Positions 1 to 38,190 of a stretch of DNA of 64,000 nt are shown here, piece by piece. This DNA comes from a virus. Taxonomy: Duplodnaviria > Caudoviricetes. Within the stretch, counting starts at the first letter, position 1. Each line of letters opens with the position of its first letter. The position numbers and the translations under genes were made by a program. The stretch covers positions 1 through 64,000 of the IMG/VR virus record IMGVR_UViG_3300031555_003626; one strand, 5' to 3'. The notes under the pieces were generated by a model, which saw only the letters and a list, made by a program, of their open reading frames with translations, did not search any database and was not told where the DNA came from.

Positions 1-2
1 GG

Positions 3-755
3 CCCGATGGAACTCCTGCACATACTATTAAAACTTTCTGTGCTGTTCGTACTTATGATCTTTCTAAGGAATTTCCTATTCTTACTCTTAGAACACAGGC
101 TTTTAAGGGCGTAGTAAGAGAGCTTCTTTGGATGTGGCAGAAGAAGTCTAATGTAGTTGATGAGCTTGGAAAGAGCGCAGCTATTTGGAGAGCCTGGGAA
201 GGTGAGGATGGAACTATTGGTAAGACCTACGGGTATCAGCTTGGTAAGGTTTCTGATTACGGCTATGGCAAGTTTGACCAGGTCGATAATCTTATTTACC
301 TTCTTAAGAACAAGCCTATGGATCGTAGAATGATTACAACTATGTGGTGCCCTCAGGATCTTAATGAAATGAACTTGCCTCCATGTGTCTATGAGACTCT
401 TTGGGATGTATCTGACGGCAAGCTTAATTGTACCGTAATTCAGCGTTCAGGCGATTTGCTGGCCGCAGCAGCTTCTGGCGGTTGGGACACTATTCAGTAT
501 GCCTTGCTTGTGCATATGCTTGCACAGGTTTGTGGATATCAGCCTGGAACCCTTATTCATCTCGTTAATAACTTACATATCTACGATCGTCATGTAGATC
601 TTGTAAAAGAAGTTATGGAGAATCCCGAGTATCCAGGACCTCAGCTTAAGCTCAATCCTGAGGTAAAAGATTTCTATGAGTTTACTGAAGATGACTTTGA
701 GCTTGTTGGCTACCAGTCTACTAAGCTTACTACTAAGTTTGAAGTTGCTGAATGA
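3..755 (+). CDS. thyA: Thymidylate synthase family protein, 5'-truncated by the window edge
   Basis: Frame is open from base 3 (PDGTPAHT...FPILTLR...ELLWMWQ). Motifs GKTYGYQ, RRMI, LPPC, QRSGD, NNLHIYDRH. Confidence 0.93.
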   Translation, partial: PDGTPAHTIKTFCAVRTYDLSKEFPILTLRTQAFKGVVRELLWMWQKKSNVVDELGKSAAIWRAWEGEDGTIGKTYGYQLGKVSDYGYGKFDQVDNLIYLLKNKPMDRRMITTMWCPQDLNEMNLPPCVYETLWDVSDGKLNCTVIQRSGDLLAAAASGGWDTIQYALLVHMLAQVCGYQPGTLIHLVNNLHIYDRHVDLVKEVMENPEYPGPQLKLNPEVKDFYEFTEDDFELVGYQSTKLTTKFEVAE

Positions 756-1003
756 AAACTATAATTAAATTGCCTTGCTCAGTCGGAGATACCGTTTGGG
801 CAAGGTCTTGGTATTACGGAGAAGCTGGTAATTGGAAGCATTGGCAGGTGACTAATTTGACAGTTACTCAAAATAAGAAAGGCATATGGACTAAGAAATT
901 TCGCGCTATGAGACTTGAGAATGGAAAGACTACTGCTCTTGCTCTCGAGTTTAGTATTGATGATATAGGAAATATCGTTTTTCTGGAGGAGCCAAATGAA
1001 TAA
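752..1003 (+). CDS. Hypothetical protein (83 aa)
   Basis: ATGA overlap with thyA stop; LPCSVGDTVW start typical of small phage proteins. Confidence 0.7.
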   Translation: MKTIIKLPCSVGDTVWARSWYYGEAGNWKHWQVTNLTVTQNKKGIWTKKFRAMRLENGKTTALALEFSIDDIGNIVFLEEPNE

Positions 1004-1544
1004 CTTTTTTAAACATCTTAAAATTATCAGAACTCATAGAAAATATGTTAGAAAGGCCTGTTTTAAAATGGGCCTCTTCTGGCAGGGGCTCACTCATGAC
1101 TTGAGCAAATATTCTTTAACAGAACTTAAGATCTGTAAATATTATACCGGCAAAAAGAGCCCTCATCAAGTAGCCCGCGAGCAACTTGGATATTCTCCTT
1201 CTTGGATTCATCATTATCATACTAATAAACATCATTTTCAGTACTGGTGGGATGAAGATGAAGAAGGCAAAATTATTCCTATGAAGATGCCTTATAAATA
1301 TGTTATTGAAAGCTTTTGTGATATGCTTGGCGCTTCGAAGGCCTATAATCCTGATAATTGGGCGCCCGAACTACTTTTGAATTATTGGGAAAACCATTGT
1401 AAAGGAAAGAGAATTCAGCATAATGATTCCGAAGCTTTTCTTGATGAGCTTATTATGCAACTAGTAGTTTTGGGTGAAAACGAATTTTTTGAGTGGTACA
1501 AAAATAATAAAAACTTTTTAAAGAAAGCTTATGAGGAAATGTGA
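996..1544 (+). CDS. HD-like DUF5662-type protein
   Basis: H..H, HDLSKY, HHYHTNKHH and DMLGA motifs. Confidence 0.7.
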   Translation: MNNFFKHLKIIRTHRKYVRKACFKMGLFWQGLTHDLSKYSLTELKICKYYTGKKSPHQVAREQLGYSPSWIHHYHTNKHHFQYWWDEDEEGKIIPMKMPYKYVIESFCDMLGASKAYNPDNWAPELLLNYWENHCKGKRIQHNDSEAFLDELIMQLVVLGENEFFEWYKNNKNFLKKAYEEM

Positions 1545-1545
1545 A

Positions 1546-1809
1546 ATGGATAAGACTGAGCAGACGACAATACATGATGTAACTTACCATACCGTTGGTA
1601 CTTATAAAATTCTTCAAAAGTGTTTAATATGCGAACAAACACAGACCGCTGAATATGATCCTGAAATTCATTCGGACGCTCGATATTTGTTATTTATTTG
1701 TGATGAATGCAAGGAAGCTATTGCTTTTATTAAAGACCTTAAAGCCAGTGTGAAAGAGGTGCCGGCAAGTCAAGCTAAAGAAATAGAAACGAGTATTGCT
1801 CTTTTATAA
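1546..1809 (+). CDS. Hypothetical protein with CxxC...CxxC zinc ribbon
   Basis: CLIC and CDEC motifs; probable ATG at 1546 after GAGGAA. Confidence 0.6.
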   Translation: MDKTEQTTIHDVTYHTVGTYKILQKCLICEQTQTAEYDPEIHSDARYLLFICDECKEAIAFIKDLKASVKEVPASQAKEIETSIALL

Positions 1810-1918
1810 AAATAATTTAAGGTAGGTATTTAAATATCCTACCTTTTATTGTATAATATTATAAGTAAAATATACTAAGTATTTTAAATAAAAATAATTA
1901 ATAAGGAGCATAAAAATT

Positions 1919-2140
1919 ATGAGACTTGAGTTAACTGAAAGCGTTAAAAAGTTTATCGATACCTTAGACAAGTCTGACCTTACTAAGGTTACCATCACTG
2001 AAGATGCGCTTGAAAGCGATGATGAAGGCATTTCTGAGAAAGTAGTAGAATTTGCCAAAGCTATGCTCGAAGCTACCGCCGAAAAATTAGATGCATACAA
2101 TACCCAGCTTCGAACTAAGCACCCAGAGTATTTTGAATGA
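1919..2140 (+). CDS. Hypothetical protein (73 aa)
   Basis: AAGGAG RBS; lies downstream of a terminator/promoter unit. Confidence 0.7.
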   Translation: MRLELTESVKKFIDTLDKSDLTKVTITEDALESDDEGISEKVVEFAKAMLEATAEKLDAYNTQLRTKHPEYFE

Positions 2141-2150
2141 GAGTGGCTAT

Positions 2151-2942
2151 ATGAATTATAAAGATTTTGTTTTAAACTATTTTGATGAGCAGCTTTTAAG
2201 CACAGTATGGCTTAAAAATAAAGACTCTGTTTATGCCAGCCAATACTTCGCTCTACAGACTAAAATTGAACAGAGCATTATTGAGTCGGAAGATAACGCA
2301 ATTTGGTTAGCCGAGCAAATCGATGAGCTTGTTGAGCTTTATATTTCACGATCAAAAACTCCGGCAGATTGGGTAGCACCGAAGAAGCGAACAACTAACG
2401 AACTAATTCATGATGAAAATGGAAGTCTTACACAAGAGTCTATTGAGCTTTTGCAGACAGCTATTTCAGATAAAAACAGTAAAAAGACTTTGATTTCGGA
2501 CACAGGCAAGACTATCTCATTTGGCGAGCGCTGGCATTCCATGCTTCAGGACAGTGGCTTTAAGTCAGTCGCCATTAACAGATTAACTGACTTTATTAGC
2601 AAGTTTATCGAGGCTGATGGCTGGGCTAAGTACTTTGTTGGAAATATTGGAAAGAACAATAAGCGCTCAATTCAAGAATATCACCCAATGGATAAGTATA
2701 ACTTAGACCACAATACTACATATGCTGCAATGCATCTTGGTGGAGATACTACAAAATGTGTCTTAGTATCTGTAGATACCGCCTCTTCTGATGGCAGAGG
2801 CGAACCGAGCGGCATGACATTCTTGGAAATTGGTGCTCATACAATTATTGATAGATTTATTGTAGGAAGTTTTAAAGTACATTCTGGAAGGCCCATTACA
2901 GAAGCCGGACCGGAAGAACTCGCAACATTACTAGATATTTAA
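2151..2942 (+). CDS. Hypothetical protein
   Basis: Long ORF; ATG 2151 follows the previous stop and is preferred to the overlapping 2091 start. Confidence 0.65.
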   Translation: MNYKDFVLNYFDEQLLSTVWLKNKDSVYASQYFALQTKIEQSIIESEDNAIWLAEQIDELVELYISRSKTPADWVAPKKRTTNELIHDENGSLTQESIELLQTAISDKNSKKTLISDTGKTISFGERWHSMLQDSGFKSVAINRLTDFISKFIEADGWAKYFVGNIGKNNKRSIQEYHPMDKYNLDHNTTYAAMHLGGDTTKCVLVSVDTASSDGRGEPSGMTFLEIGAHTIIDRFIVGSFKVHSGRPITEAGPEELATLLDI

Positions 2943-3016
2943 TTAAAAGCTGCTGTACTTTTTCAACCATTTATGTTATTATATTTAATATAAAATAACA
3001 TAAAGGAGTGTAGCCT

Positions 3017-3439
3017 ATGAATTATGATAAAATTAAAAATATATTCATAGATCTGTATGAGGAGCTTTGTGATACCTTTGATAATTTTGAGTCAGACTTT
3101 AATGAGGCAACAGGTCGCGAACAGATATTACAGGAAACCAAGTTATATCCGGAGCGAACAGACGTTGTAAGTTACTTTGAAAAAATTACCGAGTCAAGAG
3201 AAGCTGCTGAAGATTTTATTAAAGAATTACTAGCACCTTCAGTTAGAGCAAGAAACAGATTTGATGTAAGCAGTTCATATCACTATATCGTTGCCAAAGA
3301 AACCTTGACTAGTCATATTGTAGTCGGTCGAGATTCCACTGTTAACTATAATGCTTTTATCAAAAAGGTAGCAGCTGACTTTAAGCTTTATAAAAAAGAT
3401 GTACACGAGCTGATAAGAGAAACGAATAATGTAGAATAA
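3017..3439 (+). CDS. Hypothetical protein (140 aa)
   Basis: AAAGGAG RBS; followed by a terminator. Confidence 0.7.
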   Translation: MNYDKIKNIFIDLYEELCDTFDNFESDFNEATGREQILQETKLYPERTDVVSYFEKITESREAAEDFIKELLAPSVRARNRFDVSSSYHYIVAKETLTSHIVVGRDSTVNYNAFIKKVAADFKLYKKDVHELIRETNNVE

Positions 3440-3511
3440 AAGTAACGGCAGACTTATAAAATAGTCTGCCTTTTATTGTATTATATAATATGAATTATTT
3501 AGGAGGATAAA

Positions 3512-3979
3512 ATGAAAAGACCTTCAATAGATGAATATTATCTTAATATAGCTAAAGCTGTTTCAGGACGTTCTACCTGTTTACGAAAGCACTACGGGGC
3601 AGTTATTGTAAAAAATGGCGAAGTAGTTTCTACAGGCTTTAACGGACCGGTCAGAGGCGAATCACATTGCGGAAATTGTACTAAGGTTTCGTGTAATAAA
3701 GATATGGCCGAGTACTTGACTTGCCCAGCAGTTCATGCTGAAATGAACGCAATAATTTCTGCTAGTAGAAGTGAAATGCTTGACGCTGACCTTTATCTCG
3801 CCGGATTTGACGTAAAGTCAGGCGAGCCTGTTGAGTGCGAAGCTTGGCCTTGTGAGATTTGTTTAAGGCTTATTAAGAATGCCGGAATTTATCGTATTAT
3901 AAATAATAAAGGCGTTTGTTATATGCGCTCTGACGACAGTATTTTAAGACAACTTATAGAAAAGGAGAATAATTTATGA
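3512..3979 (+). CDS. dCMP deaminase
   Basis: RSTC, GFNG, HAEMNAI and PCEIC zinc-deaminase motifs. Confidence 0.92.
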   Translation: MKRPSIDEYYLNIAKAVSGRSTCLRKHYGAVIVKNGEVVSTGFNGPVRGESHCGNCTKVSCNKDMAEYLTCPAVHAEMNAIISASRSEMLDADLYLAGFDVKSGEPVECEAWPCEICLRLIKNAGIYRIINNKGVCYMRSDDSILRQLIEKENNL

Positions 3980-4491
3980 TTATCGGAATTTGCTGTGTAG
4001 ATAATAAGTGGGGACTGGGCAAGAAGAATGACCTTTTGTTTCACTTAAAAAAGGATATGCAGTTTTTTAGACAAACTACTGCTGATTCTATTGTGGTATG
4101 TGGGTATAATACCTTATTGAGCTTTCCTGGAGGAAAGCCCCTTAAGGGTCGCTCTACTATTTGTCTTTGTCCTGAGGAAGTAGAAAGAGATGACTGTTTC
4201 TGCGTTCATGACTTTGATGAGATGGTAAGACTTATTCAAGAACTTTCTAAGACTACAAATGTATATATTATTGGTGGTGGAATGCTTTACAATAGTATGG
4301 TTCCTTACTATGACGAAGTATATGTAAATAAAGTAGACGCGGACGGGAAAGCTGAAGTATTCTTCCCAAATCTTGACGAGCATCCTGACTATGAGCCTTA
4401 TCAGTTTCTTCCTGTTGTAGAAGATGAAGGCTATCAGACACGACTTGTAACATACAAAAGAAAAATTCCGCTTGAGCTGTTGGAGGGCTAA
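3976..4491 (+). CDS. folA: Dihydrofolate reductase
   Basis: GLGKKNDL, DMQFFRQTT, PLKGR, IIGGG and FFP motifs. Confidence 0.92.
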   Translation: MIIGICCVDNKWGLGKKNDLLFHLKKDMQFFRQTTADSIVVCGYNTLLSFPGGKPLKGRSTICLCPEEVERDDCFCVHDFDEMVRLIQELSKTTNVYIIGGGMLYNSMVPYYDEVYVNKVDADGKAEVFFPNLDEHPDYEPYQFLPVVEDEGYQTRLVTYKRKIPLELLEG

Positions 4492-4667
4492 TGAATAATC
4501 CTAAGTCAAAATGTGATTTTTGTCGCTACAAAACTTCAAGTGGCTGTATGGTATCGCCAAATTCTTATTATTGTAAAGAAGCAAATGATGAGTTTTATAG
4601 ATACCTACAGAGTAAGAAAACTGCTCAGCCGGCACAGAAATCTTTAAGATCATGGGATAAAAAATAA
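4491..4667 (+). CDS. Small Cys-rich protein (58 aa; not in the ORF track)
   Basis: TAATG coupling to DHFR, GGAGGG RBS; MNNPKSKCDFCRY...GC...YC. Confidence 0.6.
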   Translation: MNNPKSKCDFCRYKTSSGCMVSPNSYYCKEANDEFYRYLQSKKTAQPAQKSLRSWDKK

Positions 4668-4699
4668 GCTAAATTAAATAGATAAGAAAGTTTATTTTT

Positions 4700-4830
4700 G
4701 ATACCCATACTATACCTAAACGATACCTTAAAAGATACAAAAATGATACAATTAATAATAAATTAATTTTTATATATTTTTGGTTACCGCTTAGGATTTC
4801 TAGGCGGTAATTTTTTATTTGTATCAATTT
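4700..4830. repeat. Helically phased (G/T)ATAC repeats plus AT-rich tract; candidate replication origin
   Basis: GATAC/TATAC at 4700, 4711, 4722, 4734, 4745; A/T-only tract 4750-4781; inverted copy at 4821. Confidence 0.45.
4784..4816 (+). terminator. Rho-independent terminator
   Basis: TTACCGCTTAG / CTAGGCGGTAA stem followed by T6. Confidence 0.75.
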
Positions 4831-4886
4831 TTGAATAACTTTATTGTATTATATTTTGTATAAAATTTTAAAGGAGAGTTAAACTA

Positions 4887-5417
4887 ATGATTAAATTTCT
4901 TATTGAACCTGGTTATGACGTAAAGGCACCTGAGAGAGAAGCTGGAAACGCTGGCGTCGACTTCTACATTCCAAAGCACACGGATATCTTCGTAAAGGCG
5001 TTTAACGAGAAGAATACAGCAGCAAATGCTATTCTTGATATTAATAGCGATGGTGAGCCTATTATTAAGATTATGCCTCATGGCCGTGCTAATATTCCTT
5101 CCGGTGTGCGTAGCTTTATTCCTTCTAATGTAGCTCTTGAGGCGCAGAACAAGTCTGGCATTGCTACTAAGCATGGTCTTGTTTACGGCGCATCTGTAGT
5201 TGATGCATCATATAAAGGTATTATTCACATCTCACTTATTAATACTACGGGTAACACTATCGAGCTTCCTCTCGGCATGAAGGCAGTACAATTTTTGCCC
5301 AGACTCATCGATATTTCTCCTATTGAAGTGTATAATAATATGTCGCTTGATGAATTCTATAAAGATTTTGAATTTTCTAACCGAGGAGAAGGAGCTTTCG
5401 GTTCAACAGGCGTTTAA
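4887..5417 (+). CDS. dut: Trimeric dUTPase
   Basis: AGVDF, KSG, VVDASYKG and RGEGAFGSTG motifs. Confidence 0.92.
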   Translation: MIKFLIEPGYDVKAPEREAGNAGVDFYIPKHTDIFVKAFNEKNTAANAILDINSDGEPIIKIMPHGRANIPSGVRSFIPSNVALEAQNKSGIATKHGLVYGASVVDASYKGIIHISLINTTGNTIELPLGMKAVQFLPRLIDISPIEVYNNMSLDEFYKDFEFSNRGEGAFGSTGV

Positions 5418-5438
5418 TATTTTATTTTGGAGGAATTA

Positions 5439-6116
5439 ATGTCAACTTGTTTTTTGCGTGAAGTTTGTAACGGCAAAGATTGCCAAAAAGACTTCTGTCT
5501 CAGAAAATATAAAATGGACTCACTCTACTCAGCAGCTCTTATAACAGATAATCAGAAGAAGCACATCACTTTAAGAGTAGATGAAGATGGAACTGACCTT
5601 GAGCAGTTTAAGCAGCTCGCGGCCATTGAGAAAGATATTGTAAATTTTATTAATGACGGTAAAAATTTATATCTTCACTCAACTAACTGCGGAAATGGCA
5701 AGTCTTCTTGGAGTCTTAGACTTGCTCAGGCTTATTTTAATAAAATTTGGGCACGAACTGAAATAAAATGTAGAGTTTTATTTATTAGTGTTCCAAGATA
5801 CTTACTTGCAATTAAAGACAACATTTCAAATAGAAATGCTTATGCTGAGTATATTAAGGAAAACGTGCTTGAAGCAGACCTTGTGATTTTTGATGATCTA
5901 GCCGCAAAAATGGGGTCAGAATTTGAGCTGACCCATTTACTCAATATTATTGATAATAGAATTTCTTTAGGTAAGTCAAATATTTATACGTCTAATTTAA
6001 ACAGACAGCAACTTTATAATGCTCTCGGTGAAAGACTGACCAGCCGAGTGGCAAATATGTCTATTGATATTGAGCTATACGGAGCAGATAAAAGAGTTTT
6101 AACAAATGGAGGCTAA
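5439..6116 (+). CDS. DnaC/IstB-like helicase loader ATPase
   Basis: Walker A CGNGKS, Walker B IFDD, TSNL, RLTSR; directly upstream of the helicase. Confidence 0.8.
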   Translation: MSTCFLREVCNGKDCQKDFCLRKYKMDSLYSAALITDNQKKHITLRVDEDGTDLEQFKQLAAIEKDIVNFINDGKNLYLHSTNCGNGKSSWSLRLAQAYFNKIWARTEIKCRVLFISVPRYLLAIKDNISNRNAYAEYIKENVLEADLVIFDDLAAKMGSEFELTHLLNIIDNRISLGKSNIYTSNLNRQQLYNALGERLTSRVANMSIDIELYGADKRVLTNGG

Positions 6117-6119
6117 GCA

Positions 6120-7436
6120 ATGATTGCACAATTTCAGATTATTAATAAAGTACTCCAGAATAAGGATTACTCTTTTATTACCCTAAATAACCTTACTGCT
6201 GAGCACTTCTACGGCTATCAGGCAGAATATGAGTTTATTAAGGCTCACTACAATACTTATCATACTGTTCCTGATCGTCTTACTTTCGTTCAGCACTTCC
6301 CTGAGTTTGTTATTCAGGATGTAAACGAGCCTGATAATTATTTGATTGAGCAGCTCTATAACGACTATAATCAGAGCTATCTTGCTACTCGTCTTAATAA
6401 TCTTAAGAGACTTCTTGAGGCCGACGATACCGCTGGAGCAATGCAGTATTTCAAGGATTCTCTTGATAAGCTTCATACGGGCTCAGCACTTCAGTGCACT
6501 GATATTATGTCAGACACTTCAAGATATGACCGCTTCTTAGATATGACAGCTAATCAAGCAAAGTATTTTATTCCTACAGGTTTTCCTGAGCTTGATAAGA
6601 TTATTACAGGTATTGACCGTAGAAATGAGAATATGGTTATTGCAGCAAGAACCGGTGTAGGTAAGTCATGGTTACTGCTTACTATTGCGGCCGCTGTCGC
6701 CAAACAGGGTCTTACTGTTGGCATCTACTCAGGTGAGATGTCAGTAGACAAGGTAGGTTATCGTATTGATACCCTTTTGGGTAAGATTGATAATAAGAAA
6801 ATTTCTCGTGGCGATCTTTACTATAAAGATCACTATAAGAATTATTTGGATAATCTTAAGTGTTCAGGATATGGACCTATTAAGGTACTTACGCCAGCCG
6901 ATATCGCAGGACCTGCTACAGTAGATGCTCTTCAGGCATTTATTGAGAAAGAAAATCTTGATATTCTGTTTATTGACCAGTACTCTTTGCTTGAAGATAA
7001 TAGCAGAGCTAAAGTAGCTCATGAAAAGGTTGCTAATATCTCAAAGTCAATTAAGAATTTACAGGTACTTAAGCAGATTCCTATTATCGCAGTTTCTCAG
7101 ATGAATAGAACTAAGAATGAAGATAAGTCTCAGGATACCACTCAGATTGCACTTTCTGACCGGATTGGTCAAGATGCTACTGTTATTCTGATGGTAGATA
7201 AGCAGGATGCTGAAGACCCAAATCATCCTGGCGCTCATAAAGTTACTATTAACATTGTAAAGTCTCGTGATGGTGGCGATGGTAGAAAATTAGATTATCT
7301 TTGGAACTTTAACACAGGTGACTATCGTTATATCTCAAACGGTAATGATGGAGTCACTTCAGAAGAAGACTTTGAAGAGATTGAAAACAGCTACAGTGCA
7401 GATTATCCCGTAACTGATGGTGAGTGCCCGTTTTAA
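6120..7436 (+). CDS. dnaB: DnaB-like replicative helicase
   Basis: ARTGVGKS, SGEM, FIDQY, SQMNR, IGQDA and KSRDG motifs. Confidence 0.92.
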   Translation: MIAQFQIINKVLQNKDYSFITLNNLTAEHFYGYQAEYEFIKAHYNTYHTVPDRLTFVQHFPEFVIQDVNEPDNYLIEQLYNDYNQSYLATRLNNLKRLLEADDTAGAMQYFKDSLDKLHTGSALQCTDIMSDTSRYDRFLDMTANQAKYFIPTGFPELDKIITGIDRRNENMVIAARTGVGKSWLLLTIAAAVAKQGLTVGIYSGEMSVDKVGYRIDTLLGKIDNKKISRGDLYYKDHYKNYLDNLKCSGYGPIKVLTPADIAGPATVDALQAFIEKENLDILFIDQYSLLEDNSRAKVAHEKVANISKSIKNLQVLKQIPIIAVSQMNRTKNEDKSQDTTQIALSDRIGQDATVILMVDKQDAEDPNHPGAHKVTINIVKSRDGGDGRKLDYLWNFNTGDYRYISNGNDGVTSEEDFEEIENSYSADYPVTDGECPF

Positions 7437-7446
7437 GGAGTAGTAT

Positions 7447-8418
7447 ATGCCAGTACTTAGAGTTGATAATTATATAATTGAAACGCCTCTTTATGAGATA
7501 GTATGTCAACTCAAGATGGCGTTAACAAATGGTAAACTTAGAGAAATAAAGTCTTGGAGCGAAGGTGATGACAATATCGTTGTCACCTGCCCCAACAGAC
7601 ACCATAAAAATGGCCGTGAAGCACATGCGGCAATGAATATCTACGTAGGAACCAGCTCAAAGATTCCGTATGGATATTGTAAATGTTGGTCTTGTGACTT
7701 CCAGTGTAGCTTTGTTAAGTTTGTAGCGGAGTGCTTTGAGTGTTCAGAAGAGTTTGCTAAGAATTGGCTTAAAGATAAATATGGTAAAATATCTAGCTCA
7801 GGCATTACTTTGTGTGATGATATTGTTATAAAACAGAATAAAATGCCTGTCCGTATGCCACCGAGCTATTTAGACGCTTTTCAAGACTGGCACCCGTATT
7901 TAGCTCAAAGAAAACTTTCAAGAGAAGTCTGTGAGCTATTTAAAGTAAAGTATGACCCGCAAACAAGCCAGATCGTTTTTCCGTGCTTTGATGTTGCTGG
8001 AAAAATTATTATGGCTCCGAGAAGGTCTATCTATAATAAAACTTTCTATATTAATAAAGATCAAGATAAGCCTGTTTACTGTCTTGATTATATCATAAAA
8101 AATAATATTTCAACAGCAATGGTTTGTGAAGGCCCGATAGATGTACTTACTTGTTATACTTATGGGTATCCGGCAATCGGTACCTGGGGCAATCCCTCAC
8201 CTACACAAATAGATGCAATAAATAAATCACCTATTAAGGTTCTTTATATAGCTATGGATAATGATTGGGCAGGGCAAAGAATGGCTAACGTAATAAAAGC
8301 TGGCCTTGATCCACGAATTATTATAAAAAAAGTTCATTGGCTTCCAAATAAAAAAGACCCAAATGAACACTCTTATGAAGAATTTCAAAAAGTTATGAAT
8401 GAAGCTAAAAATTCATAA
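7447..8418 (+). CDS. DNA primase (zinc finger plus TOPRIM)
   Basis: CP..H...CWSC; EGPIDV; MDNDWAG; KDPNE. Confidence 0.9.
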   Translation: MPVLRVDNYIIETPLYEIVCQLKMALTNGKLREIKSWSEGDDNIVVTCPNRHHKNGREAHAAMNIYVGTSSKIPYGYCKCWSCDFQCSFVKFVAECFECSEEFAKNWLKDKYGKISSSGITLCDDIVIKQNKMPVRMPPSYLDAFQDWHPYLAQRKLSREVCELFKVKYDPQTSQIVFPCFDVAGKIIMAPRRSIYNKTFYINKDQDKPVYCLDYIIKNNISTAMVCEGPIDVLTCYTYGYPAIGTWGNPSPTQIDAINKSPIKVLYIAMDNDWAGQRMANVIKAGLDPRIIIKKVHWLPNKKDPNEHSYEEFQKVMNEAKNS

Positions 8419-8511
8419 ATCACATTGTATTATATAATATCGGCTGACATCCGATAAATATAAAAAATAAATAAAAAATACAAAAACAATACCAAAGGAG
8501 AAAATTCAAAA

Positions 8512-9414
8512 ATGTCAAATTCTACGTTTAATTTCGCACAGTATCAGCAGATCGCAGCTCAGGAGCAGACCCAGTCCGGCGACGGCACTAAGATTGGTTA
8601 TTTCAAGCTCAAAGATGATGGCGACATCGCTATCGCACGTATCAACCTCAGTTCTACCGATGAGTTTATGTTCGCAGCAGTTCATACTCTTCAGGTAGGT
8701 GGTAAGTGGATGAAGGTAAGTTGCCACAATCCTCTCGGCATGAACGCAGCTGGCTGTCCTCTTTGCTCTGCCCATCAGGCAAATCCTAAGGGCTCTATTA
8801 GCAAGTCCGCTAAGAAGATGTTCATTCCTATGCTCGTTTCTTACCGTGATCCTCAGTCTGCAACCGGTTATACACCTGTTACTCCCGTTATTTGGGATCG
8901 TCCTGCTCAGTTCTCTCGTGAGCTTGCTAATAAGCTTATGGTAGCAGGTAATCTTAAGGATGTTCTCGTTCTCATTACCCGTAACGGTAAGGCGGGTGAC
9001 ATGCAGACTACTTACTCTGTAGACGTTCTTCCTGCAACTCATCCCGTATTTAAGCCTGAGATGATTCCCGCTGACTTCAGTGCTTTCAATAACTTTAATA
9101 TCGCTAAGCACTCCTACTGGGAAAAGACTGTTGAGGAAATTAACACCTTCCTTGCTACCGGTCAGTTCCCTGAGGTTCCTAAGGCAAACAACCAGCAGAC
9201 TGTAAATAACGCAGCAACTTCTGCTAACACTTATGCAGCTCCTGCAACTCCTGCTTACACGGCACCTACTCAGACAGTTCCTACTCAGACAGTTCCTGCC
9301 TACACTGCTCCTGCTTATAATGCGGTTAATACCGCACCTGCAACAGCTCCCGCTATTAACACTGCTGGTTCCGAGCAGACTCCTGTGAGAAACTTCTCCG
9401 GCTTCAGCTTCTAA
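8512..9414 (+). CDS. Single-stranded DNA-binding protein (gp32-like)
   Basis: YFKLKDDGD, H...C...CPLC zinc site, low-complexity Ala/Thr/Pro tail; located between primase and polymerase; strong codon bias. Confidence 0.7.
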   Translation: MSNSTFNFAQYQQIAAQEQTQSGDGTKIGYFKLKDDGDIAIARINLSSTDEFMFAAVHTLQVGGKWMKVSCHNPLGMNAAGCPLCSAHQANPKGSISKSAKKMFIPMLVSYRDPQSATGYTPVTPVIWDRPAQFSRELANKLMVAGNLKDVLVLITRNGKAGDMQTTYSVDVLPATHPVFKPEMIPADFSAFNNFNIAKHSYWEKTVEEINTFLATGQFPEVPKANNQQTVNNAATSANTYAAPATPAYTAPTQTVPTQTVPAYTAPAYNAVNTAPATAPAINTAGSEQTPVRNFSGFSF

Positions 9415-9535
9415 TCTCAATTAGTTAAAACAAGATTAGGCTAATCTAAATTATACAAATTTAAAAGACGGGTCTAAAACGATCCGTCTTTTATTGTATT
9501 ATATTATATAAAATATATTTTAAGCGAGGTTATAC

Positions 9536-11404
9536 ATGAATAGTTTATTTGGTGGCTTTGATTTATCAGTAAGTGCAAAGCCAAAAGTATCACCTGAAGC
9601 TCTTATCAAAAAAGCAACCCCGACTGTTGCAGCAGAGCCTAAGAAGATAACTAATCAGAGTTTATTTGCTTCTGAAGAATTATCTGAATTTAATGTAGAA
9701 CTTAATAAACCTAAGCCTGAAGCCTTGGCTCGTAAGATTGCAAGTACTGAAGAAGGCGAAGTAGACGCTGCTAAGGTACTTAAGTCTAAGAAGGTATCTC
9801 TTGCTGAAAAGCTTGCCTTAATTAAAATTAAGGTCCTTGAAGTACTCGGTAAGCAGAGAAAGAACGTAGTTGTAATTAAGGATAAGGCAACTTTTGAAGA
9901 CTATGTTTCTAAGGCAATTGAGTTCGGTCGAATTGCAATAGACACTGAGACCAATAACTCTACCGACCCCATGACTTGTCAGCTAATGGGTCTTTGCTTG
10001 TATTATGAAGGCGGTAAGCAGGCTTATATTCCTATCAATCACGTTAACCCTGAAACTGGAGAACATCTTGATTGGCAGCTAACTGAAGAAGACTGTAGAG
10101 TACAGCTTCAGAGAATTAAGGATGCAGGCACTTTTGTAGTAATGCACAACGGTAAGTTCGATTATGAAGTTATTAAGTGCACTTGTGGTATTGAGATTGA
10201 GCCTGACTGGGATACTATGATAGGCGCTCATACTATCAATGAAAATGAGAAAATGAACCTCAAGTGGCAGTACATTAATAAGATTGACCCCACTCAGGAA
10301 AAGTATGATATCGAAAGCTTGTTCATCGTTCCGTATAAGTATGTAGAACCTGATATCTTTGCTCTCTACGCTGCGACCGACTCTATGATGACTGATAAAC
10401 TTTATGTATATCAGGTAGCTATTTTGGAAGCACCCGGCAACGAAAGACTTTACTGGATGTTTAAAACTATTGAGATGCCGATTGTTAAAGTTGCAGGCGA
10501 TATGGAGCTTATCGGTGTTTGTATTGACCAGGAATTTGGTGAAAGACTTCGTCTTAAGTTTAATCAGAATTTGGAAGATATTGACGTAAGAATTGAGCAA
10601 GAACTTGAGGCTCTCAAGCCTACAATTACAAAGTGGAAGAGCAGTAAGGATGCTACTGATAGAACTAAGCAGTTTGAGCCTAAGAAGACTACTCTCTCAC
10701 TTGCAAAGCTTGAAGAAAAGTATCCTTATGTAGACGAAAAGACTGGTAAAAGATACAAGGTTGGTAAGTCTAAAATTGAACAGCTTGCTGATCCTATCAA
10801 CCTTGCTTCGCCTACGCAGCTTGCTATACTATTTTATGATATTTTAAAGTGTCCTACGGTAAGCAAAAAATCGCCCAGAGGAACTGGAAAAGACGAGCTT
10901 GAGGCTTTAGCTGAGAGAACTGATATCGCGCTCTGTAAGCTGATTTTGGAGCGTCGTGGAGTGGTTAAACTTATCTCAACTTATATTGACGTTCTGCCTG
11001 CTCTTGCAAGACATTGGCCTGACGGACGTATTCGTTATAAGCTTAATTCTGTCGGTACTGATACTGGTCGTTTCTCTTCTGGTGGTGAATTTAAGTTCCT
11101 TGATGGTGATGAGCCTGTAGAAATTTCTGGATTTAACAGTCAGAATATTCCTTCTCGTGGAGACGGTAAAATCACTCGTCTTTTGTTTGAGGCTAAGAAA
11201 GAATTTGCTGATATTGAAGTGGATGTAGACCGTTTTACGGTACATGAAACAGCGGAGATCGAAACTGTTGACGGTTGGAAGTACGGAAAAGATATTGTAG
11301 CACTAAAAGATAGTGTACTTACGGACGATGGACCTGCTCTTATTGAAGTAGTTAGCTATGATGTTTTGAAGAAAGAATACGAATTTATTGTGAGGAAGTA
11401 TTAA
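9536..11404 (+). CDS. polA: Family A DNA polymerase, fragment 1 (3'-5' exonuclease, thumb, start of palm) plus Hint-like tail
   Basis: IAIDTET, HNGKFD, YAATD, NLASPTQL, TGRFSS, NSQNIP. Confidence 0.9.
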   Translation: MNSLFGGFDLSVSAKPKVSPEALIKKATPTVAAEPKKITNQSLFASEELSEFNVELNKPKPEALARKIASTEEGEVDAAKVLKSKKVSLAEKLALIKIKVLEVLGKQRKNVVVIKDKATFEDYVSKAIEFGRIAIDTETNNSTDPMTCQLMGLCLYYEGGKQAYIPINHVNPETGEHLDWQLTEEDCRVQLQRIKDAGTFVVMHNGKFDYEVIKCTCGIEIEPDWDTMIGAHTINENEKMNLKWQYINKIDPTQEKYDIESLFIVPYKYVEPDIFALYAATDSMMTDKLYVYQVAILEAPGNERLYWMFKTIEMPIVKVAGDMELIGVCIDQEFGERLRLKFNQNLEDIDVRIEQELEALKPTITKWKSSKDATDRTKQFEPKKTTLSLAKLEEKYPYVDEKTGKRYKVGKSKIEQLADPINLASPTQLAILFYDILKCPTVSKKSPRGTGKDELEALAERTDIALCKLILERRGVVKLISTYIDVLPALARHWPDGRIRYKLNSVGTDTGRFSSGGEFKFLDGDEPVEISGFNSQNIPSRGDGKITRLLFEAKKEFADIEVDVDRFTVHETAEIETVDGWKYGKDIVALKDSVLTDDGPALIEVVSYDVLKKEYEFIVRKY

Positions 11405-11835
11405 TGAAAGTAAGAACAAGAACTCAATATAAACTTGTCGGATCAGACTACTCTGCTCAAGAACCCCGTATAACAACGTATCTTTCTGGAGATCCAAACA
11501 TGCGACAGGCTTATCTCGAAGGCAAAGATTTATACTGCGTTATCGCATCAAATATTTATAATAATAAGTACGAAGAGAACCTGGAAAATTTTCCAGAAGG
11601 CCATGTACTTGAGCTTGACGGTAAAAAGACTGTGGCTGGAAATGATAAAAGCTATAAAAAGCAGGTTTCAGATAAGCTAGAAGTTCCTTATTATTATTTG
11701 GTACCAACTATTTCTGGAACAAAAGCGGCAGCTGAAATTCAGGCTGGTGATAGCATTATTGCTGATGAAGGTGCTTTTACTGTTGGTACTGTTGCGACTA
11801 TAAATGATATAACAACAATTTATTTTGTTGATTAA
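11404..11835 (+). CDS. polA: Family A DNA polymerase, fragment 2 (motif A) plus Hint-like tail
   Basis: LVGSDYSAQEPR (motif A), GKDLY; TAATG-coupled to fragment 1. Confidence 0.88.
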   Translation: MKVRTRTQYKLVGSDYSAQEPRITTYLSGDPNMRQAYLEGKDLYCVIASNIYNNKYEENLENFPEGHVLELDGKKTVAGNDKSYKKQVSDKLEVPYYYLVPTISGTKAAAEIQAGDSIIADEGAFTVGTVATINDITTIYFVD

Positions 11836-11895
11836 ATTATTAGCTAAATTAAATAGGATACATTCCGTAAATAACAGCGAGGAGCAATTTAATTT

Positions 11896-12915
11896 ATGCT
11901 ATATGTAATTTATTTAATCACAAATTTAATTAACAACAAAAAGTATGTTGGTCAGACTCAGCAAGGTCGCGAAGAAAAACGTTGGCAGGAGCATTTTGTT
12001 TACACAGTAAATGACAATAAGCTTCTTCATAATGCTATTAGAAAGTATGGCCCTGAAAATTTTGAAGTTAAGACTATAGAAACAGACATACCTGAAGAGC
12101 TAATTGACGAACGAGAATGCTATTATATTAAGTATTATAACACTTTCTATCTAAATAAACAAGGCTATAATATGACTGAAGGCGGCCAAGGGATTCACGG
12201 GTATATTCATACAGAAGAAACTAAGCAACAGATTAAAGAAAGTAATTTAGCTACTTGGCAAAAAATTAAAGAAGAAGAGCCTGAACGCTACTCTCGACTT
12301 TGTTTAAATAGAAGTCTTGCTAACAAAGGAAAGCCCAAATCTGCTGAGCATCGCGCTAAAATGAGTGTGATTGCTTCAGCACGTATTGGAGAGAAAAATT
12401 CTTTTTACGGAAAGCACTTTTCGGAAGAGTCAAAAGAAAAACAACGTGAAAACTGGAGAACTAAGTGCGAACCTATTAAAGCTTTTTCCGCACAAACTGG
12501 CCAGCTGTATAAAAAGTATTATACTGCGATGGATGCTGTTCGAGACTTAAATCTGCAAAGTAGCGCAAATAGCCGTATTATAACAATATGTAAAGAGCAA
12601 AAGGGTGTTGGTTATGGATTTATTTGGCGATATGAAAAAGATTGTCCGGATGATTTTATTTTGGTAGCTAAGCATGAGCCACTATTAAGGCAGGACACTG
12701 GAATTAAAAAGTCCGCTGTAGCAAAAAAAGTTTTTCAATATGATAGTCAAAACAACTTAATAGCAGAGTTTGAATCTGCGGCTGAGGCAGCACGTAAGCT
12801 TCAACCAGACCAAGCTAAGCAACGAAACTTAGCGAAAAAAATAAATTGTACTTGCCGAGGACAGTATAAAACTTGCCACGGTTATGTTTGGAGCTACATG
12901 AAATTAGACAGTTAA
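11896..12915 (+). mobile_element. Free-standing GIY-YIG homing endonuclease (NUMOD3/NUMOD1-like repeats) inside the polymerase locus
   Basis: VIYLITN..KKYVGQT, ERE, GYNMTEGG, HTEETKQ, GEKNSFYGKH; has its own promoter and RBS. Confidence 0.88.
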
Positions 12916-12960
12916 TATCGTATTTTATAATAATATAATTATTGAGGAGGTGATGCCTAC

Positions 12961-13920
12961 ATGAGTACTATTAAAACAATTGAAATAAAGTCCCCACCAA
13001 AGCTTCTTAATAAAGAAGGCAAGGAAAGACGTTCGGTTGCGAAGATGGTGCTTTTGTGACGAAACTTGGCACTTACGTATGGAATGGGGCCAAGCACGTT
13101 GGCAAAACGTATTAATAAAACAAATCAGGAAGCACAAGAGATTTTCGATAACTTCTTTAAGAGCTTTCCGAAGGTAGAAGAGCTTATTAATAGCTCGAAA
13201 GAATTTTTAAGAACTCACGGTTATGTAGAAGACTGGGCAGGTAGAAGACGTCATTTGACAGATTACTTCCTTAATCCTTATGAAGCTTCTTACATGGATC
13301 CTGATAAGCTTATTGCTCAGACTTTTAATCCTATTCTTGGTTGTGAGAGCAGACCTCTTGTAGATGATAAGCTCACTTCTTGGGTAAATAGAGCTAAGAC
13401 AACTAAGAATAATAAAGAATTTGATGAGCTTGCTAAGTTGGCAGCAAAAGAAGGAATTATTCTATCTGCAAATACCGGTAGAATCGCTCAGGCAGAGAGA
13501 CAGTGCCTTAATGCAAGAATTCAGGGATCTGCAGCTTCACTTACTAAGCTGGCTATGATCCAGATTCATAATAGTCAGGAACTTAAAGATATTGATGCAA
13601 AACTTGTTATGACTATTCATGATGAAGTTATGCTCGAATGCCCTGCTTTGTATGCAGACCAGGCATCCGAGATTCTTCCAAGAATTATGATTGATGCTGC
13701 TGCACCTTATATCGATGTTCCTATGAAATGTGACCCTGCTATTGAGTCTCGTTGGTATACTTCGGAGTACGCCGTAGCTGTTCAGTCTGAGTTTAAGAAG
13801 CTTACTGATAAAGGACTTGAAAGAGATGAAGCATTTAAGAAGCTTTATGCTAAGCACCCCGAGCTTCCTGAAGAAGCTATTTACAAAACTATTACTGAAG
13901 GCATTGACCTTGAATTTTAA
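12961..13920 (+). CDS. polA: Family A DNA polymerase, fragment 3 (motifs B and C), interrupted by an in-frame TGA at 13057-13059
   Basis: GAGGAGGTG RBS, then MSTIK...KERRSVAKMVLL*RNL-ALTYGMG in one frame; NARIQGSAA; TIHDEV. Confidence 0.85.
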
Positions 13921-13945
13921 TATACGAAGGAGAAATTTTTAAGTT

Positions 13946-14572
13946 TTGGTAACACCCGGATTTTTAGAGAATGGTATTGATTTTGACCCGTTGATCGACT
14001 ATTATGTGGCTAATAATTACTATGTTGAAGTGGTAAACCAATCAGAAGTTAAAGTAGCAACAGCTTTAACAGAAAGTGTTATTAATAATAGCCACGGATA
14101 TCAGGAGGAAGAGAGCTCTGCAAAGAAGCCTAACGTTAGGCTTCGAATGATTTTTAACTCTATGTTATGGGAAAAGATCGTAAAAAGAGTCAGTAGTTTA
14201 ATTAGGAAAAGCAGCGCTGTATGGCTAGTTGGTGGTTCTTATGAAAAAGGCACGGACTTCCAATCAACTGACGGCGTTGATATTGAAGCAAAAGTATATA
14301 AAGATATAAACAGCATGAATTTTTATGCTAAAAAAGGCTCTGTAGACTATACTGTATTTCATGGTGCCGAATATGTACTTTGTTATTTGATTAATAGTCA
14401 TGAAAATAAACACGTATATTGGCTTAAAAAAACTAATGGAATATATCATATATATAATGATGAAGGATTAGAGTACTTAACAAGCAAGCGCCTGCCACAG
14501 GTGATTCCAGTTTGTTACTGTACGATAAGGCCTGATAAAATTATTTTCGGTAAAAGTACTTATTGTACTTAA
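13946..14572 (+). CDS. Hypothetical protein, possible PD-(D/E)xK nuclease fold
   Basis: TDF.....DIEAK pattern; TTG start with long RBS spacing. Confidence 0.45.
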   Translation: MVTPGFLENGIDFDPLIDYYVANNYYVEVVNQSEVKVATALTESVINNSHGYQEEESSAKKPNVRLRMIFNSMLWEKIVKRVSSLIRKSSAVWLVGGSYEKGTDFQSTDGVDIEAKVYKDINSMNFYAKKGSVDYTVFHGAEYVLCYLINSHENKHVYWLKKTNGIYHIYNDEGLEYLTSKRLPQVIPVCYCTIRPDKIIFGKSTYCT

Positions 14573-14615
14573 TCTGCTAAATTATAATGATTAATATTTA
14601 ATATTGGAGATTATT

Positions 14616-15953
14616 ATGATTAAAACAGAATTTATGGAGCTTTATGAAGAGCTTAGTGAGATAAATGGAGATTCAATATCTATAGAAGGCGTTTCTTCAC
14701 CAGAAGAGCTAATGGACTGGATGAATGAAAACATTACTTATGAACTTGTAGATGATGAGTATTCTAACAGTAACGGAGTTCCTACTAAAACAGCAGAAGA
14801 AGTTTTAAAAACTGGCACTGGACATTGCGCTGAACAGTCCTATCTCGAAAAAGAAGTTCTTGATGATCTTGGTTACGAGACTTTCTTAGTAATGGTTAAA
14901 GAGAATAATTCTAAAAAAGAATACGGTGCGGAAGGTTCTGCTCATGTGTTTTTAGTTTATAAAGAAGGTAAAAATTACTGCTGGTTTGAGCATTCAATGC
15001 AGCATGCCAGAGGTATTCATAAATACACTTCTTTAGACGCGCTTCTACAGGATGTTGCTAATCAGTGGTGGCGCTATGATGAAAATTCTGATATTCTTGA
15101 AGTAAGAATGATGGATAAAGTTATCACAGGCGTTGACAACTGGGGACTTGCTAAAGAGTGCTATAAATTACCTGTAGAATATACTTTTGATATTTCTAAT
15201 AATATTATGGAGTCTGATGTTCCACTTGAAGAGTCTGTAAACAGCAACTCTCAAATTGATTATCTTCCAGTTTCAGACGTAGAGCTTTTTAAAGAGTATG
15301 CCGATGATATTTTGGACGGATATGGAAATATGTCTGATGCTGATATTAAGAGCTCTATTAAAGAAATTCATTTTGAAGGAAAGCTTGCTGGCTATATCGG
15401 TTTTTCTGAGTATGAGGAAAACGGAAGCAAGTGTCTCGGTATTGGTAATTTTATGATTATCGAGCGTGGTAAAGGCCTTGGCTCAGCAGTAATTCAAAAT
15501 ATTGTAGAAAAGTATAAAAATCAATATGATCTTATTTATTGCTTTGTAGATGCTAAAAATGACGGCGCTATCCGACTTTACAAAAAGCTTGGAAAAGTTT
15601 ATGATGAAGACGGTCCAAATGACAACGGTGAGTACTACGTAACTTTCTGGGACAACGGTAAATGGGATCTTGATGAGGAATTTGACCCACCGTATAATGA
15701 ACAACAAGTAAGAAATACTTATGGCGAGGAAACTTATCAGCGATTAATAAAAGACCCTGCTCATCTTTGGAGAATGAGAACAGGTATTGAGCTAATTCAT
15801 AGAGAGCCATCAAAAAAGGAGCTTGAAAGAATTTGGGCTAACTGGCAGCTTATGACGATTAATCAAAAACGTAAATCAGATGAAAAATCTAAAGAGTTGT
15901 TTGGCAAAACTAATGCTGAGCATTATGCAGAGCTTATCAAAACTTATAATTAA
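14616..15953 (+). CDS. Multidomain protein: transglutaminase-like, GNAT acetyltransferase, unknown C-terminal domain
   Basis: GHCAEQS...HVFLVY...WFE; RGKGLGS...NDGAIRLYKKLG; ATG 14616 after GGAG. Confidence 0.7.
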   Translation: MIKTEFMELYEELSEINGDSISIEGVSSPEELMDWMNENITYELVDDEYSNSNGVPTKTAEEVLKTGTGHCAEQSYLEKEVLDDLGYETFLVMVKENNSKKEYGAEGSAHVFLVYKEGKNYCWFEHSMQHARGIHKYTSLDALLQDVANQWWRYDENSDILEVRMMDKVITGVDNWGLAKECYKLPVEYTFDISNNIMESDVPLEESVNSNSQIDYLPVSDVELFKEYADDILDGYGNMSDADIKSSIKEIHFEGKLAGYIGFSEYEENGSKCLGIGNFMIIERGKGLGSAVIQNIVEKYKNQYDLIYCFVDAKNDGAIRLYKKLGKVYDEDGPNDNGEYYVTFWDNGKWDLDEEFDPPYNEQQVRNTYGEETYQRLIKDPAHLWRMRTGIELIHREPSKKELERIWANWQLMTINQKRKSDEKSKELFGKTNAEHYAELIKTYN

Positions 15954-18234: not shown

Positions 18235-19107
18235 GTGGCAAAAATTTATAAAATAACTAATACTAAAAATGGTAAGTTTTATATCGGAATGACTGTTGAT
18301 TCACTTGAGCAGCGATTAAAAGAGCACATACAAGAATGTCGCAGATATGAACGCGGTACAGTAAAATATAAGTCTAGACTATATAATGCAATGATAGCTG
18401 ACGGTATACAGTACTTTATTATTGAGTTAGTAGAAGATAATGTACCGAGAGAACTTGTAGGAGAGCGGGAGCAGTATTATATTAAATTACTAAGGTCTCA
18501 AGATGACTCTATTGGTTATAATATCAGTAAAGGTGGCCGAGCAGGTCCACCGCAAGGTAAACATACTGAGCAGGCTAAATTGATGCAGTCAATCCATAAT
18601 AAGAATAAAATTTGGTGTTATGACCCAAATACATTGGAGTATCGAAAAGTACTTCCTGAGGATGTACCCGAAGGTTTTATTATCGGTATGCTTGAGAGCC
18701 ATAAAGCCAAATTAAAAGGTGAAAATAACGGTATGTATGGAAAAGTAGGTTCAAACCGAGGAAAAACTTTGTCAGAAGAGACAAAAAAGAGATCCAGTGA
18801 AACTAAAAAAGCTAGAAATAAAAATAGAAATTGGGCGTGGTATACAAATGGCTCAGAAGAACACTGGATTAATTTAAACGAAAAACAGCCCCCAGAAGGA
18901 TTTTATCCAGGGCGAATTCCGAATAAAAACGCACATCGAGTTTCTATTGAAATAGAAGATTTAATTGAGCATAAAACGTATCAATTTGATGCTTACAGCT
19001 TCGCACAAGAAGCCTTAAAACTATCTTATATGACTATTGTAAAGTCTATAAAAACAGGATGTATTATCAAGAATAGATATAAATGTAAGCTAAAAACTGA
19101 TAAATAA
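18235..19107 (+). mobile_element. Free-standing GIY-YIG homing endonuclease upstream of recA
   Basis: KIYKITN..KFYIGMT, ERE, GYNISKGG, GENNGMYGK, LSEETKK. Confidence 0.85.
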
Positions 19108-38112: not shown

Positions 38113-38190
38113 TAAATTAAAGTGGTTAAGCTGTTTTAATTTGCTAAATTAATTGATTAAAAAAATTAAAATAAAGGAGATTAACTTTTA

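Follow-up and report, generated by a model that had tools for sequence, protein, structure and literature searches.

In this work we describe a family A DNA polymerase gene that is split by a free-standing GIY-YIG homing endonuclease gene and that carries, a short distance downstream, a 12-nt insert starting with a stop codon inside motif B. The locus lies in the window, by which we mean the whole stretch of DNA analysed, that is, the first 64 kb of the 233,329-bp virus record IMGVR_UViG_3300031555_003626. Comparison with related contigs leads us, on balance, to favour a reading in which the nuclease and the insert form one mobile cassette, the insert is hopped over during translation and its presence protects the carrier. 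The parts of this statement differ in firmness: that the cassette moves with its insert is highly probable from the mosaic structure of the sequence; that a ribosomal hop neutralises the gap is probable from the pattern of insert variants; and that the insert would confer self-immunity against the adjacent nuclease, a proposal that leans on analogy with phage T4, appears to us somewhat better than even.

The split polymerase and its inserts

All the genes around the nuclease insertion are on the + strand, and the locus is made up of the following features.

9536 to 11404, + strand: polymerase fragment 1, 622 aa, with the 3'-5' exonuclease and the N-terminal polymerase part (list of open reading frames, ORFs; Pfam DNA_pol_A_exo1 and DNA_pol_A)
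11404 to 11835, + strand: polymerase fragment 2, 143 aa, with an uninterrupted motif A (ORF list, Pfam)
11896 to 12915, + strand: free-standing GIY-YIG homing endonuclease gene, 339 aa, called HEG-2 (Pfam GIY-YIG, NUMOD3 and NUMOD1)
12945 to 12953, + strand: Shine-Dalgarno sequence (GGAGG-type ribosome-binding site, RBS) of the restarted polymerase fragment (read from the sequence)
12961 to 13056, + strand: polymerase fragment 3 before the gap, 32 codons, a new N-terminal extension followed by native sequence as far as the first half of motif B
13057 to 13068, + strand: 12-nt insert, composed of the stop codon TGA (13057-13059), six spacer bases (13060-13065) and the landing codon TTG (13066-13068)
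13069 to 13920, + strand: rest of the polymerase, with the second half of motif B, motif C and the C-terminus (Pfam DNA_pol_A; same frame as 12961)

An earlier reading of these letters, the original prediction, had held that a free-standing GIY-YIG gene splits the polymerase and that a new RBS restarts the downstream piece, and both proposals were borne out. HEG-2 contains GIY-YIG (residues 3-83), NUMOD3 (145-184) and NUMOD1 (277-302) domains, all above the curated Pfam cut-offs, and by this domain layout it is a GIY-YIG homing endonuclease of the I-TevI/Seg type. The RBS precedes an ATG at 12961 and is conserved in all cassette-bearing relatives. Of the new promoter-like motif proposed at the same place there is only a weak match (12912-12939), of a kind that shuffled sequence yields just as often.

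The frame from 12961 to 13920 is open apart from the single TGA at 13057-13059, and the part before the gap ends in the take-off codon TTG (13054-13056), so that the DNA reads TTG (13054), TGA, CGA, AAC, TTG (13066), GCA. Eight uninterrupted relatives have K-M-V-L-L-A-L-T-Y-G-M-G in this region, where the window has K-M-V-L-L-[stop-R-N-L]-A-L-T-Y-G-M-G. According to this alignment the 12 nt are a real insertion, and the distance of about 140 bp from the nuclease stop that had been predicted is in fact 142 nt (12915 to 13057).

The relatives, gathered from IMG/VR, a metagenome collection and a protein-based contig index, amount to some 45 distinct contigs from this phage's clade, and their polymerases are 47-99% identical. 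Motif B is uninterrupted in most of them, and insert-bearing alleles are present in ∼214-kb contigs from independent samples. Deposited phages gave no match to this phage by megablast, and the nearest ones by protein, such as Dp-1 and phiCTP1, are less than 40% identical.

Across the clade we have found 14 insert variants of 7, 8, 9, 10 or 12 nt in motif A or motif B, represented by the following sites.

L029:1066-1077: motif B, second Leu, the 12 nt of the window
L036 and L065: motif B, second Leu, a one-base variant of the window's 12 nt
L028:5052-5063: motif B, second Leu, an unrelated 12 nt, from CTT to CTC
L066:1393-1399: motif B, second Leu, 7 nt, from CTC to CTC
L005:5995-6003, L067:2631-2639 and L068: motif B, Thr, three 9-nt versions
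L007:5743-5754, L014:322-333 and L061:3444-3455: motif A, Ser, 12-nt versions with TAG or TAA
L067:1053-1059: motif A, Ser, 7 nt
L022:4276-4283: motif A, Glu, 8 nt, from GAA to GAG
L023:147-156: motif A, Glu, 10 nt
L036:3454-3460 and L068:1056-1062: motif A, Glu, 7 nt
L031:1470-1478: motif A, Pro, 9 nt

All 14 begin with a stop codon (TAG, TGA or TAA) placed directly after the take-off codon, and the stop can mutate and still remain a stop (TAG in L014, TAA in L061). The landing codon repeats the take-off codon unchanged in eight variants, differs only at the wobble position in four and involves a first-position G-U pair in the other two. Deleting any of the inserts restores the native codon series exactly, frame included in the case of the 7-, 8- and 10-nt versions. 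A C directly follows the stop in 11 of the 14, the 12-nt gaps are purine-rich, and the gaps lie at five codon positions in the two motifs with many of their sequences unrelated to one another. Because this single design (stop first, matching codon last, exact restoration) is repeated 14 times, the window's insert is not a chance event. The comparison with homologues was necessary here, since a whole-genome scan for the codon-stop-codon signature was too noisy to be used without them.

As for the rest of the gene, fragments 1 and 2 meet in an ATGA stop/start overlap (11401-11404), a split that is kept in most relatives, while a 51%-identical relative has the polymerase as a single unsplit ORF (L030:829-3912). 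From about 11634, fragment 2 has a cassette-derived C-terminal extension of ∼66 aa in place of native sequence, and the N-terminal extension of fragment 3 is conserved and Lys-rich. The tail of fragment 2 (11634-11832) shows weak similarity to the tail that fragment 1 naturally has in relatives (L007:4620-4811; pairwise E = 3e-4). A small domain promoting reassembly of the polymerase pieces may have been copied by the cassette. A second junction type occurs in relatives such as L019 and L024, with a different tail, a 30-70-nt spacer containing an RBS and a new start, and it exists with or without nuclease and insert.

Probable movement of the cassette and its link to the insert

When the window was compared by blastn with the nuclease-free contig L001, the alignment ran to 11633 and resumed at 13009, so that 1375 nt (11634-13008) replace 22 nt. 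The imported sequence extends beyond this core on both sides, as sliding identity and informative sites indicate:

about 11455 to 13110 (approximate), + strand: cassette-derived (co-converted) DNA in an L001-like backbone

On the left, backbone-like sequence stops near 11455. On the right, all 10 informative sites at 13035-13099 match the cassette-bearing L029, whereas from 13116 on 57 of 61 match the L001/L002/L013 backbone (Fisher p = 2e-9), placing the breakpoint at 13099-13116. The cassette-like sites at 13035-13099 put the insert inside the imported tract. Right-hand crossovers are likewise found ∼3-50 nt past the insert in L029 (motif B) and in L007 and L014 (motif A), a pattern that fits double-strand-break repair from a cassette template and also selection for carrying the insert, and that does not of itself place the cut. 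These comparisons make it highly probable that the cassette, insert included, is mobile.

The original prediction had named in advance the co-occurrence of insert and endonuclease across relatives as a test, and the association was found, although as a one-way link. The motif B insert is present in 11/11 contigs with HEG-2 (8 distinct sequences) and in 1/28 without it (p = 7e-9 by contig, 2e-6 by distinct sequence). The single nuclease-free contig with a motif B insert, L029, keeps the cassette tails and the RBS and has 34 nt where the nuclease ORF would be, which identifies it by its sequence as a remnant cassette that has lost the nuclease ORF. A second nuclease family, HEG-1, is located between the first two polymerase pieces, and the motif A insert, 85-95 nt downstream of it, is present in 6/6 contigs with HEG-1 and in 15/35 without it (p = 0.02). 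Taking both sites together, 17/17 nuclease-bearing alleles carry an insert and each family pairs with the nearest downstream motif. These counts are not phylogenetically independent, and the states are scattered on the tree: in a tree of 23 rows built from sequence downstream of the conversion tracts, with the motif A state of L026 and L027 scored as absent, the insert state requires 9 or more changes for motif A and 3 or more for motif B. The window groups there (support 99) with three contigs that lack both nuclease and insert and with one that has only a motif A insert.

HEG-2 has relatives in 29 protein clusters with 47-95% identity over the full length; the six that were looked up are all at the same polymerase site, and among protein relatives down to 47% identity HEG-2 is always inside the second polymerase piece. 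HEG-1 and HEG-2 resemble each other in the catalytic domain alone (37% identity over 138 aa), and their DNA-binding parts are unrelated. A scan of IMG/VR with the window's nuclease found nothing, and the same scan with HEG-1 found only distant relatives in other contexts.

On this basis, the mobile unit would span ∼11634-13068 plus short flanking conversion tracts and would consist of the C-terminal tail on the upstream piece, the GIY-YIG gene, the RBS with its start and short N-terminal tail, and the 12-nt insert. In co-infecting relatives whose polymerase allele has neither nuclease nor insert, the nuclease would cut at motif B or close to it, and repair would copy tail, nuclease gene, restart signals and insert together, that is, an intron-less homing. 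In the carrier DNA the 12 nt would interrupt the target, which would then remain uncut. Nucleases of the GIY-YIG homing type would tolerate synonymous changes. As the residues encoded by the target could hardly vary, an insertion passed over by the ribosome may be among the few ways to destroy the site. By eye, insert-free motif B has no CNNNG cleavage motif of the I-TevI type, an absence that carries no information.

A different explanation of the link would keep the mobile cassette and the hopped gap and take the insert to be a repair scar, or a resistance allele against another nuclease, joined to HEG-2 only by proximity. Many inserts do lack an adjacent nuclease (in motif A those of 15 contigs, in motif B that of L029), and the linked synonymous changes in the 48 nt between the core insertion and the 12-nt insert might protect the carrier by themselves. 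Against it are the lack of any nuclease-bearing allele without an insert at either site and the pairing of each nuclease family, with its own DNA-binding part, with its own nearest downstream motif. Moreover, in the T4 MobA element the polymorphisms flanking the target did not protect when present alone, and it was the bypass insert of gene 60 that blocked MobA nicking (bioRxiv 10.1101/2022.08.31.505936). We consider this explanation unlikely, if the most serious of those weighed here, and continue with the insert as protection against its neighbouring nuclease.

Alleles with an insert and no nuclease could be remnants after loss of the nuclease gene, or resistant alleles that persist and spread as free riders, serving as immune templates when the nuclease acts in trans. 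The many gaps at five codon positions, together with the abundance of such alleles, would fit a repeated selection of resistant alleles.

Two other candidates for the origin of the split were rejected. A group I intron-encoded endonuclease is at odds with the lack of an Rfam match in 11200-13400 at E <= 1 and with the flanks, since each of these is an ORF by itself that has its own stop, RBS and start. A fractured gene with a split intein (PMC2677866) was discarded at the level of sequence, as no intein or Hint Pfam match was found in the fragments at E <= 0.01, and the junction residues at the polymerase break are not Cys/Ser...His-Asn.

Proposed crossing of the gap

The record's first ∼14.8 kb (1-14836) recur at its end (218494-233329), giving a genome of ∼218.5 kb, and this repeat could be a terminal one or else reflect overlapping ends in the assembly of a circularly permuted genome of that size. 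The polymerase/nuclease locus, although present twice in the record (second copy at 230329-231573), is thus one locus, and a whole-genome search found it to be the only family A polymerase locus. In the genome no family B polymerase was found and the Pol III alpha family gave only a sub-threshold match. Strong purifying selection acts on the coding sequence that follows the inserts (dN/dS of 0.02-0.09 between insert-bearing alleles that differ at most synonymous sites), and just behind the motif A gap the amino acids stay the same, with synonymous variation in their codons. The genome has 13 phage tRNAs, clustered at 190268-196863 outside the window, with no suppressor among them. With a sole polymerase under purifying selection, no suppressor and invariant residues behind the gap, translation must cross the gap in the frame of the landing codon, and this crossing must be invisible to the protein because a translated insert would wreck the catalytic O-helix.

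We propose that the crossing is a ribosomal hop, which would explain all 14 variants by one mechanism and which we regard as probable from their common design. In the window, peptidyl-tRNA-Leu would sit on TTG 13054 with TGA followed by C, a poor termination context, in the A site; the tRNA would then release, the mRNA would slide by 12 nt and the tRNA would re-pair at TTG 13066, so that translation would resume at GCA 13069 to give the native K-M-V-L-L-A-L-T-Y-G. The phage encodes a tRNA-Leu(CAA) that reads TTG. Its tRNAs also read most of the take-off codons of the clade (Leu-CAA, Leu-TAG, Thr-TGT, Glu-TTC, Glu-CTC and Pro-TGG).

Alternatively, the extra bases could be removed from the mRNA by a tiny intron, by editing or by polymerase slippage. 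Sequence comparison cannot separate removal at the RNA level from removal by the ribosome, in some types the gap can be enclosed in a small hairpin, and the same doubt once existed for T4 gene 60. In agreement with the original prediction, which had seen no group I intron core, no Rfam family, group I and II introns included, matches 11200-13400 at E <= 1, and 7-12 nt is far below any self-splicing intron known to us. Furthermore, a stop at the first position and matching codons in frame suit a ribosomal mechanism and would have no role in RNA excision, for which reasons we hold RNA removal to be quite improbable.

Only marginally less probable than RNA removal is that the polymerase has been split once more, a 32-aa peptide ending at the TGA at 13057 and a restart at TTG 13066 making four chains in all. 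TTG is a permitted start used by gene callers, in the 8-nt type an ATGA overlap arises that supplies an ATG as start (P0065-type proteins), and the polymerase already works as separate chains. Nevertheless, no Shine-Dalgarno sequence precedes 13066, and most insert types have no start codon at the landing site, their landing codons being ACT, GCT, CTC, TCN, GAA, GAG and TCG. A break in the O-helix or in motif A would also separate catalytic residues, and restart leaves the constant match between landing and take-off codons unexplained. Least probable of all is readthrough of the TGA by a near-cognate tRNA, adding four residues to motif B: TGA followed by C is known from textbooks to be leaky in bacteria and the window's insert is in frame, yet inserts of 7, 8 and 10 nt at the same sites are not multiples of three and cannot be read through, all three stop codons are used without a suppressor tRNA, no coding constraint is seen in the gap codons (Arg, Gln, Leu and Gly alternate), and the O-helix would have its Lys-to-Tyr spacing altered by the four added residues.

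The hop as we propose it also has evidence weighing against it. The landing TTG of the window and the overlapping ATG of the 8-nt type make re-initiation conceivable for these two types. About half of the insert-bearing contigs lack a nuclease, so that the insert does not need one. Eight contigs (L028, L029, L036, L065 and L067-L070) need two hops per polymerase, which would be costly unless hopping is efficient. Finally, the take-off hairpin of the window's insert is weak (-0.5 kcal/mol, rank 3593 of 4096 against randomised spacers). A hairpin with the take-off codon in its 5' arm and the stop in its loop is clear in the L022, L023 and L031 types and absent or weak in those of the window and L005; all types combined give p = 0.019 against randomised spacer bases, and the 51-nt context of the window folds no better than shuffles (z = -1.1). 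As a signal common to all types the hairpin holds only partly, and we have not treated it as shared.

Known systems and other observations

The nearest counterpart is the MobA element of T4, in which a homing endonuclease gene, mobA, is found together with the 50-nt bypass of gene 60 (Bonocora et al. 2011, as reported by Manning & Atkins, bioRxiv 10.1101/2022.08.31.505936). According to the same preprint, the bypass is present in every nuclease-bearing phage and kept in some without the nuclease, the element has added tails, and the gene 60 cassette was still termed "unique" in 2022. In both systems a free-standing nuclease gene interrupts an essential replication gene within a catalytic region, the pieces on either side gain a C- and an N-terminal tail, and a stop-initiated gap lies downstream that occurs in all nuclease-bearing genomes and is kept in some after nuclease loss. 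A match between the take-off and the landing codon and a stop right after the former, found in 14/14 variants, are also features of gene 60 bypassing. On the other hand, the nuclease is GIY-YIG/NUMOD here and HNH in MobA, the split gene is a family A polymerase here and topoisomerase II in T4, and the gaps of 7-12 nt have no sequence similarity to the one of ∼50 nt. There are many unrelated gaps here as opposed to one homologous cassette, with no evident UUCG-type take-off stem-loop or nascent-peptide signal. From these sequence differences the polymerase cassette is an analogue of the MobA element and not a homologue, which supports the independent origin of the T4 strategy that had been suggested. 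Bypass and protection were demonstrated experimentally in T4, whereas here we propose them from the comparison of alleles.

Stop-hops with a closely similar logic have been engineered in E. coli at low efficiency (Weiss et al. 1987; O'Connor et al. 1989, as summarised in PMC5009743). There too a stop occupies the A site when the peptidyl-tRNA leaves its codon, and pairing is resumed at a matching codon a few nt further on, so that a codon-stop-codon unit encodes one amino acid; the design described here differs in being natural, in an essential gene, in many variants and up to 12 nt long. No natural in-frame stop-hop was known at the time of that 2016 review (PMC5009743).

Several other homing systems share parts of this arrangement. 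The T4 Seg endonucleases carry out intron-less homing, and seg43(25) lies in the polymerase gene of Aeromonas phage 25 (PMC2988022). Like the cassette proposed here, these free-standing GIY-YIG genes spread when their product cuts a neighbouring gene in a co-infecting relative, the flanks being co-converted (marker exclusion), and seg43(25) also splits a DNA polymerase gene; for Seg, however, no coding-gap insert has been described and protection comes from differences in the target sequence. In collaborative (trans) homing, as with F-CphI and the psbA intron or mobE and the I-TevIII intron (PMC6083498, PMC2790892), the target of a free-standing nuclease is interrupted in its own genome by a separate nearby neutral element and both move together. 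The protector is there a self-splicing group I intron, while here it would be 7-12 nt apparently neutralised at translation. The nrdA gene of phage Aeh1 is split by MobE (PMC3045599) in a similar way, with cassette-derived tails that help the pieces to reassemble; Aeh1 has no bypass element, and the tails of our polymerase are only putative reassembly aids.

Nuclease-linked hops of 7-12 nt in polymerase genes were not described in any of the papers searched. To our knowledge, natural bypassing is known from very few systems, namely gene 60 of T4 with its homologues, yeast mitochondria and the terminase of a Streptomyces phage. With at least 14 natural variants, all in an essential gene, the minimal hop signal of this clade would offer a ready-made mutational series for the requirements of ribosome hopping. 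If nuclease plus bypass arose again with another nuclease family and another host gene, the combination looks like a general outcome of the conflict between a homing endonuclease and an ultra-conserved target. More tentatively, and with the chances somewhat against it, stop-initiated mini-gaps of 7-12 nt could be a repeatedly evolved, general form of resistance to homing endonucleases at codons too conserved to mutate. Their abundance, two-hop genomes included, would then imply that short hops are efficient in the host, perhaps with help from the tRNAs of the phage or some other factor of it, with the matched codon pair and the stop followed by C as the only signals. If this were true, mini-gaps would be a natural counterpart of the 'functional resistance alleles' that arise against gene drives. 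There is also a consequence for annotation, as gene calls now break such genes into truncated pieces, of which the polymerase proteins of 284, 351 and 366 aa in public databases are examples.

With respect to expression of the nuclease, a short motif lies upstream of its gene:

11841 to 11851, + strand: 11-nt motif, candidate late promoter element

This motif has 15 matches with one mismatch at most versus 6.5 expected. It recurs at 38141, 48133, 53772, 54205, 57695 and 63125 and at L007:4837-4850, and it is found before several structural genes and before both nuclease families (HEG-1 in L007), so the nuclease is perhaps expressed late.

GIY-YIG genes are also found elsewhere in these genomes. 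Another free-standing one is located at 18235-19107 of the window, where the close relative L001 has 29 nt in its place, and comparison with L001 revealed no mini-insert in the flanking genes. A third is found at L005:658-1386, between the primase and the next gene (L005/L006), and is absent from that position in the window.

Finally, three observations concern the polymerases of particular contigs. In L067 (2625-2639) the motif B gap is an exact 6-nt duplication around TAG, which hints that some gaps arise by short duplication during repair. The JAEIGA01 metagenome (contigs L013-L036) contains naive, insert-only, nuclease-plus-insert and double-insert polymerase alleles side by side, and this mixture looks like an ongoing conflict inside one phage population. 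The contig L045 (IMGVR_UViG_3300021255_001010) encodes at 2470-4071 a 40%-identical polymerase with four in-frame stops aligned to Trp and other residues, and this phage probably uses a recoded stop codon.

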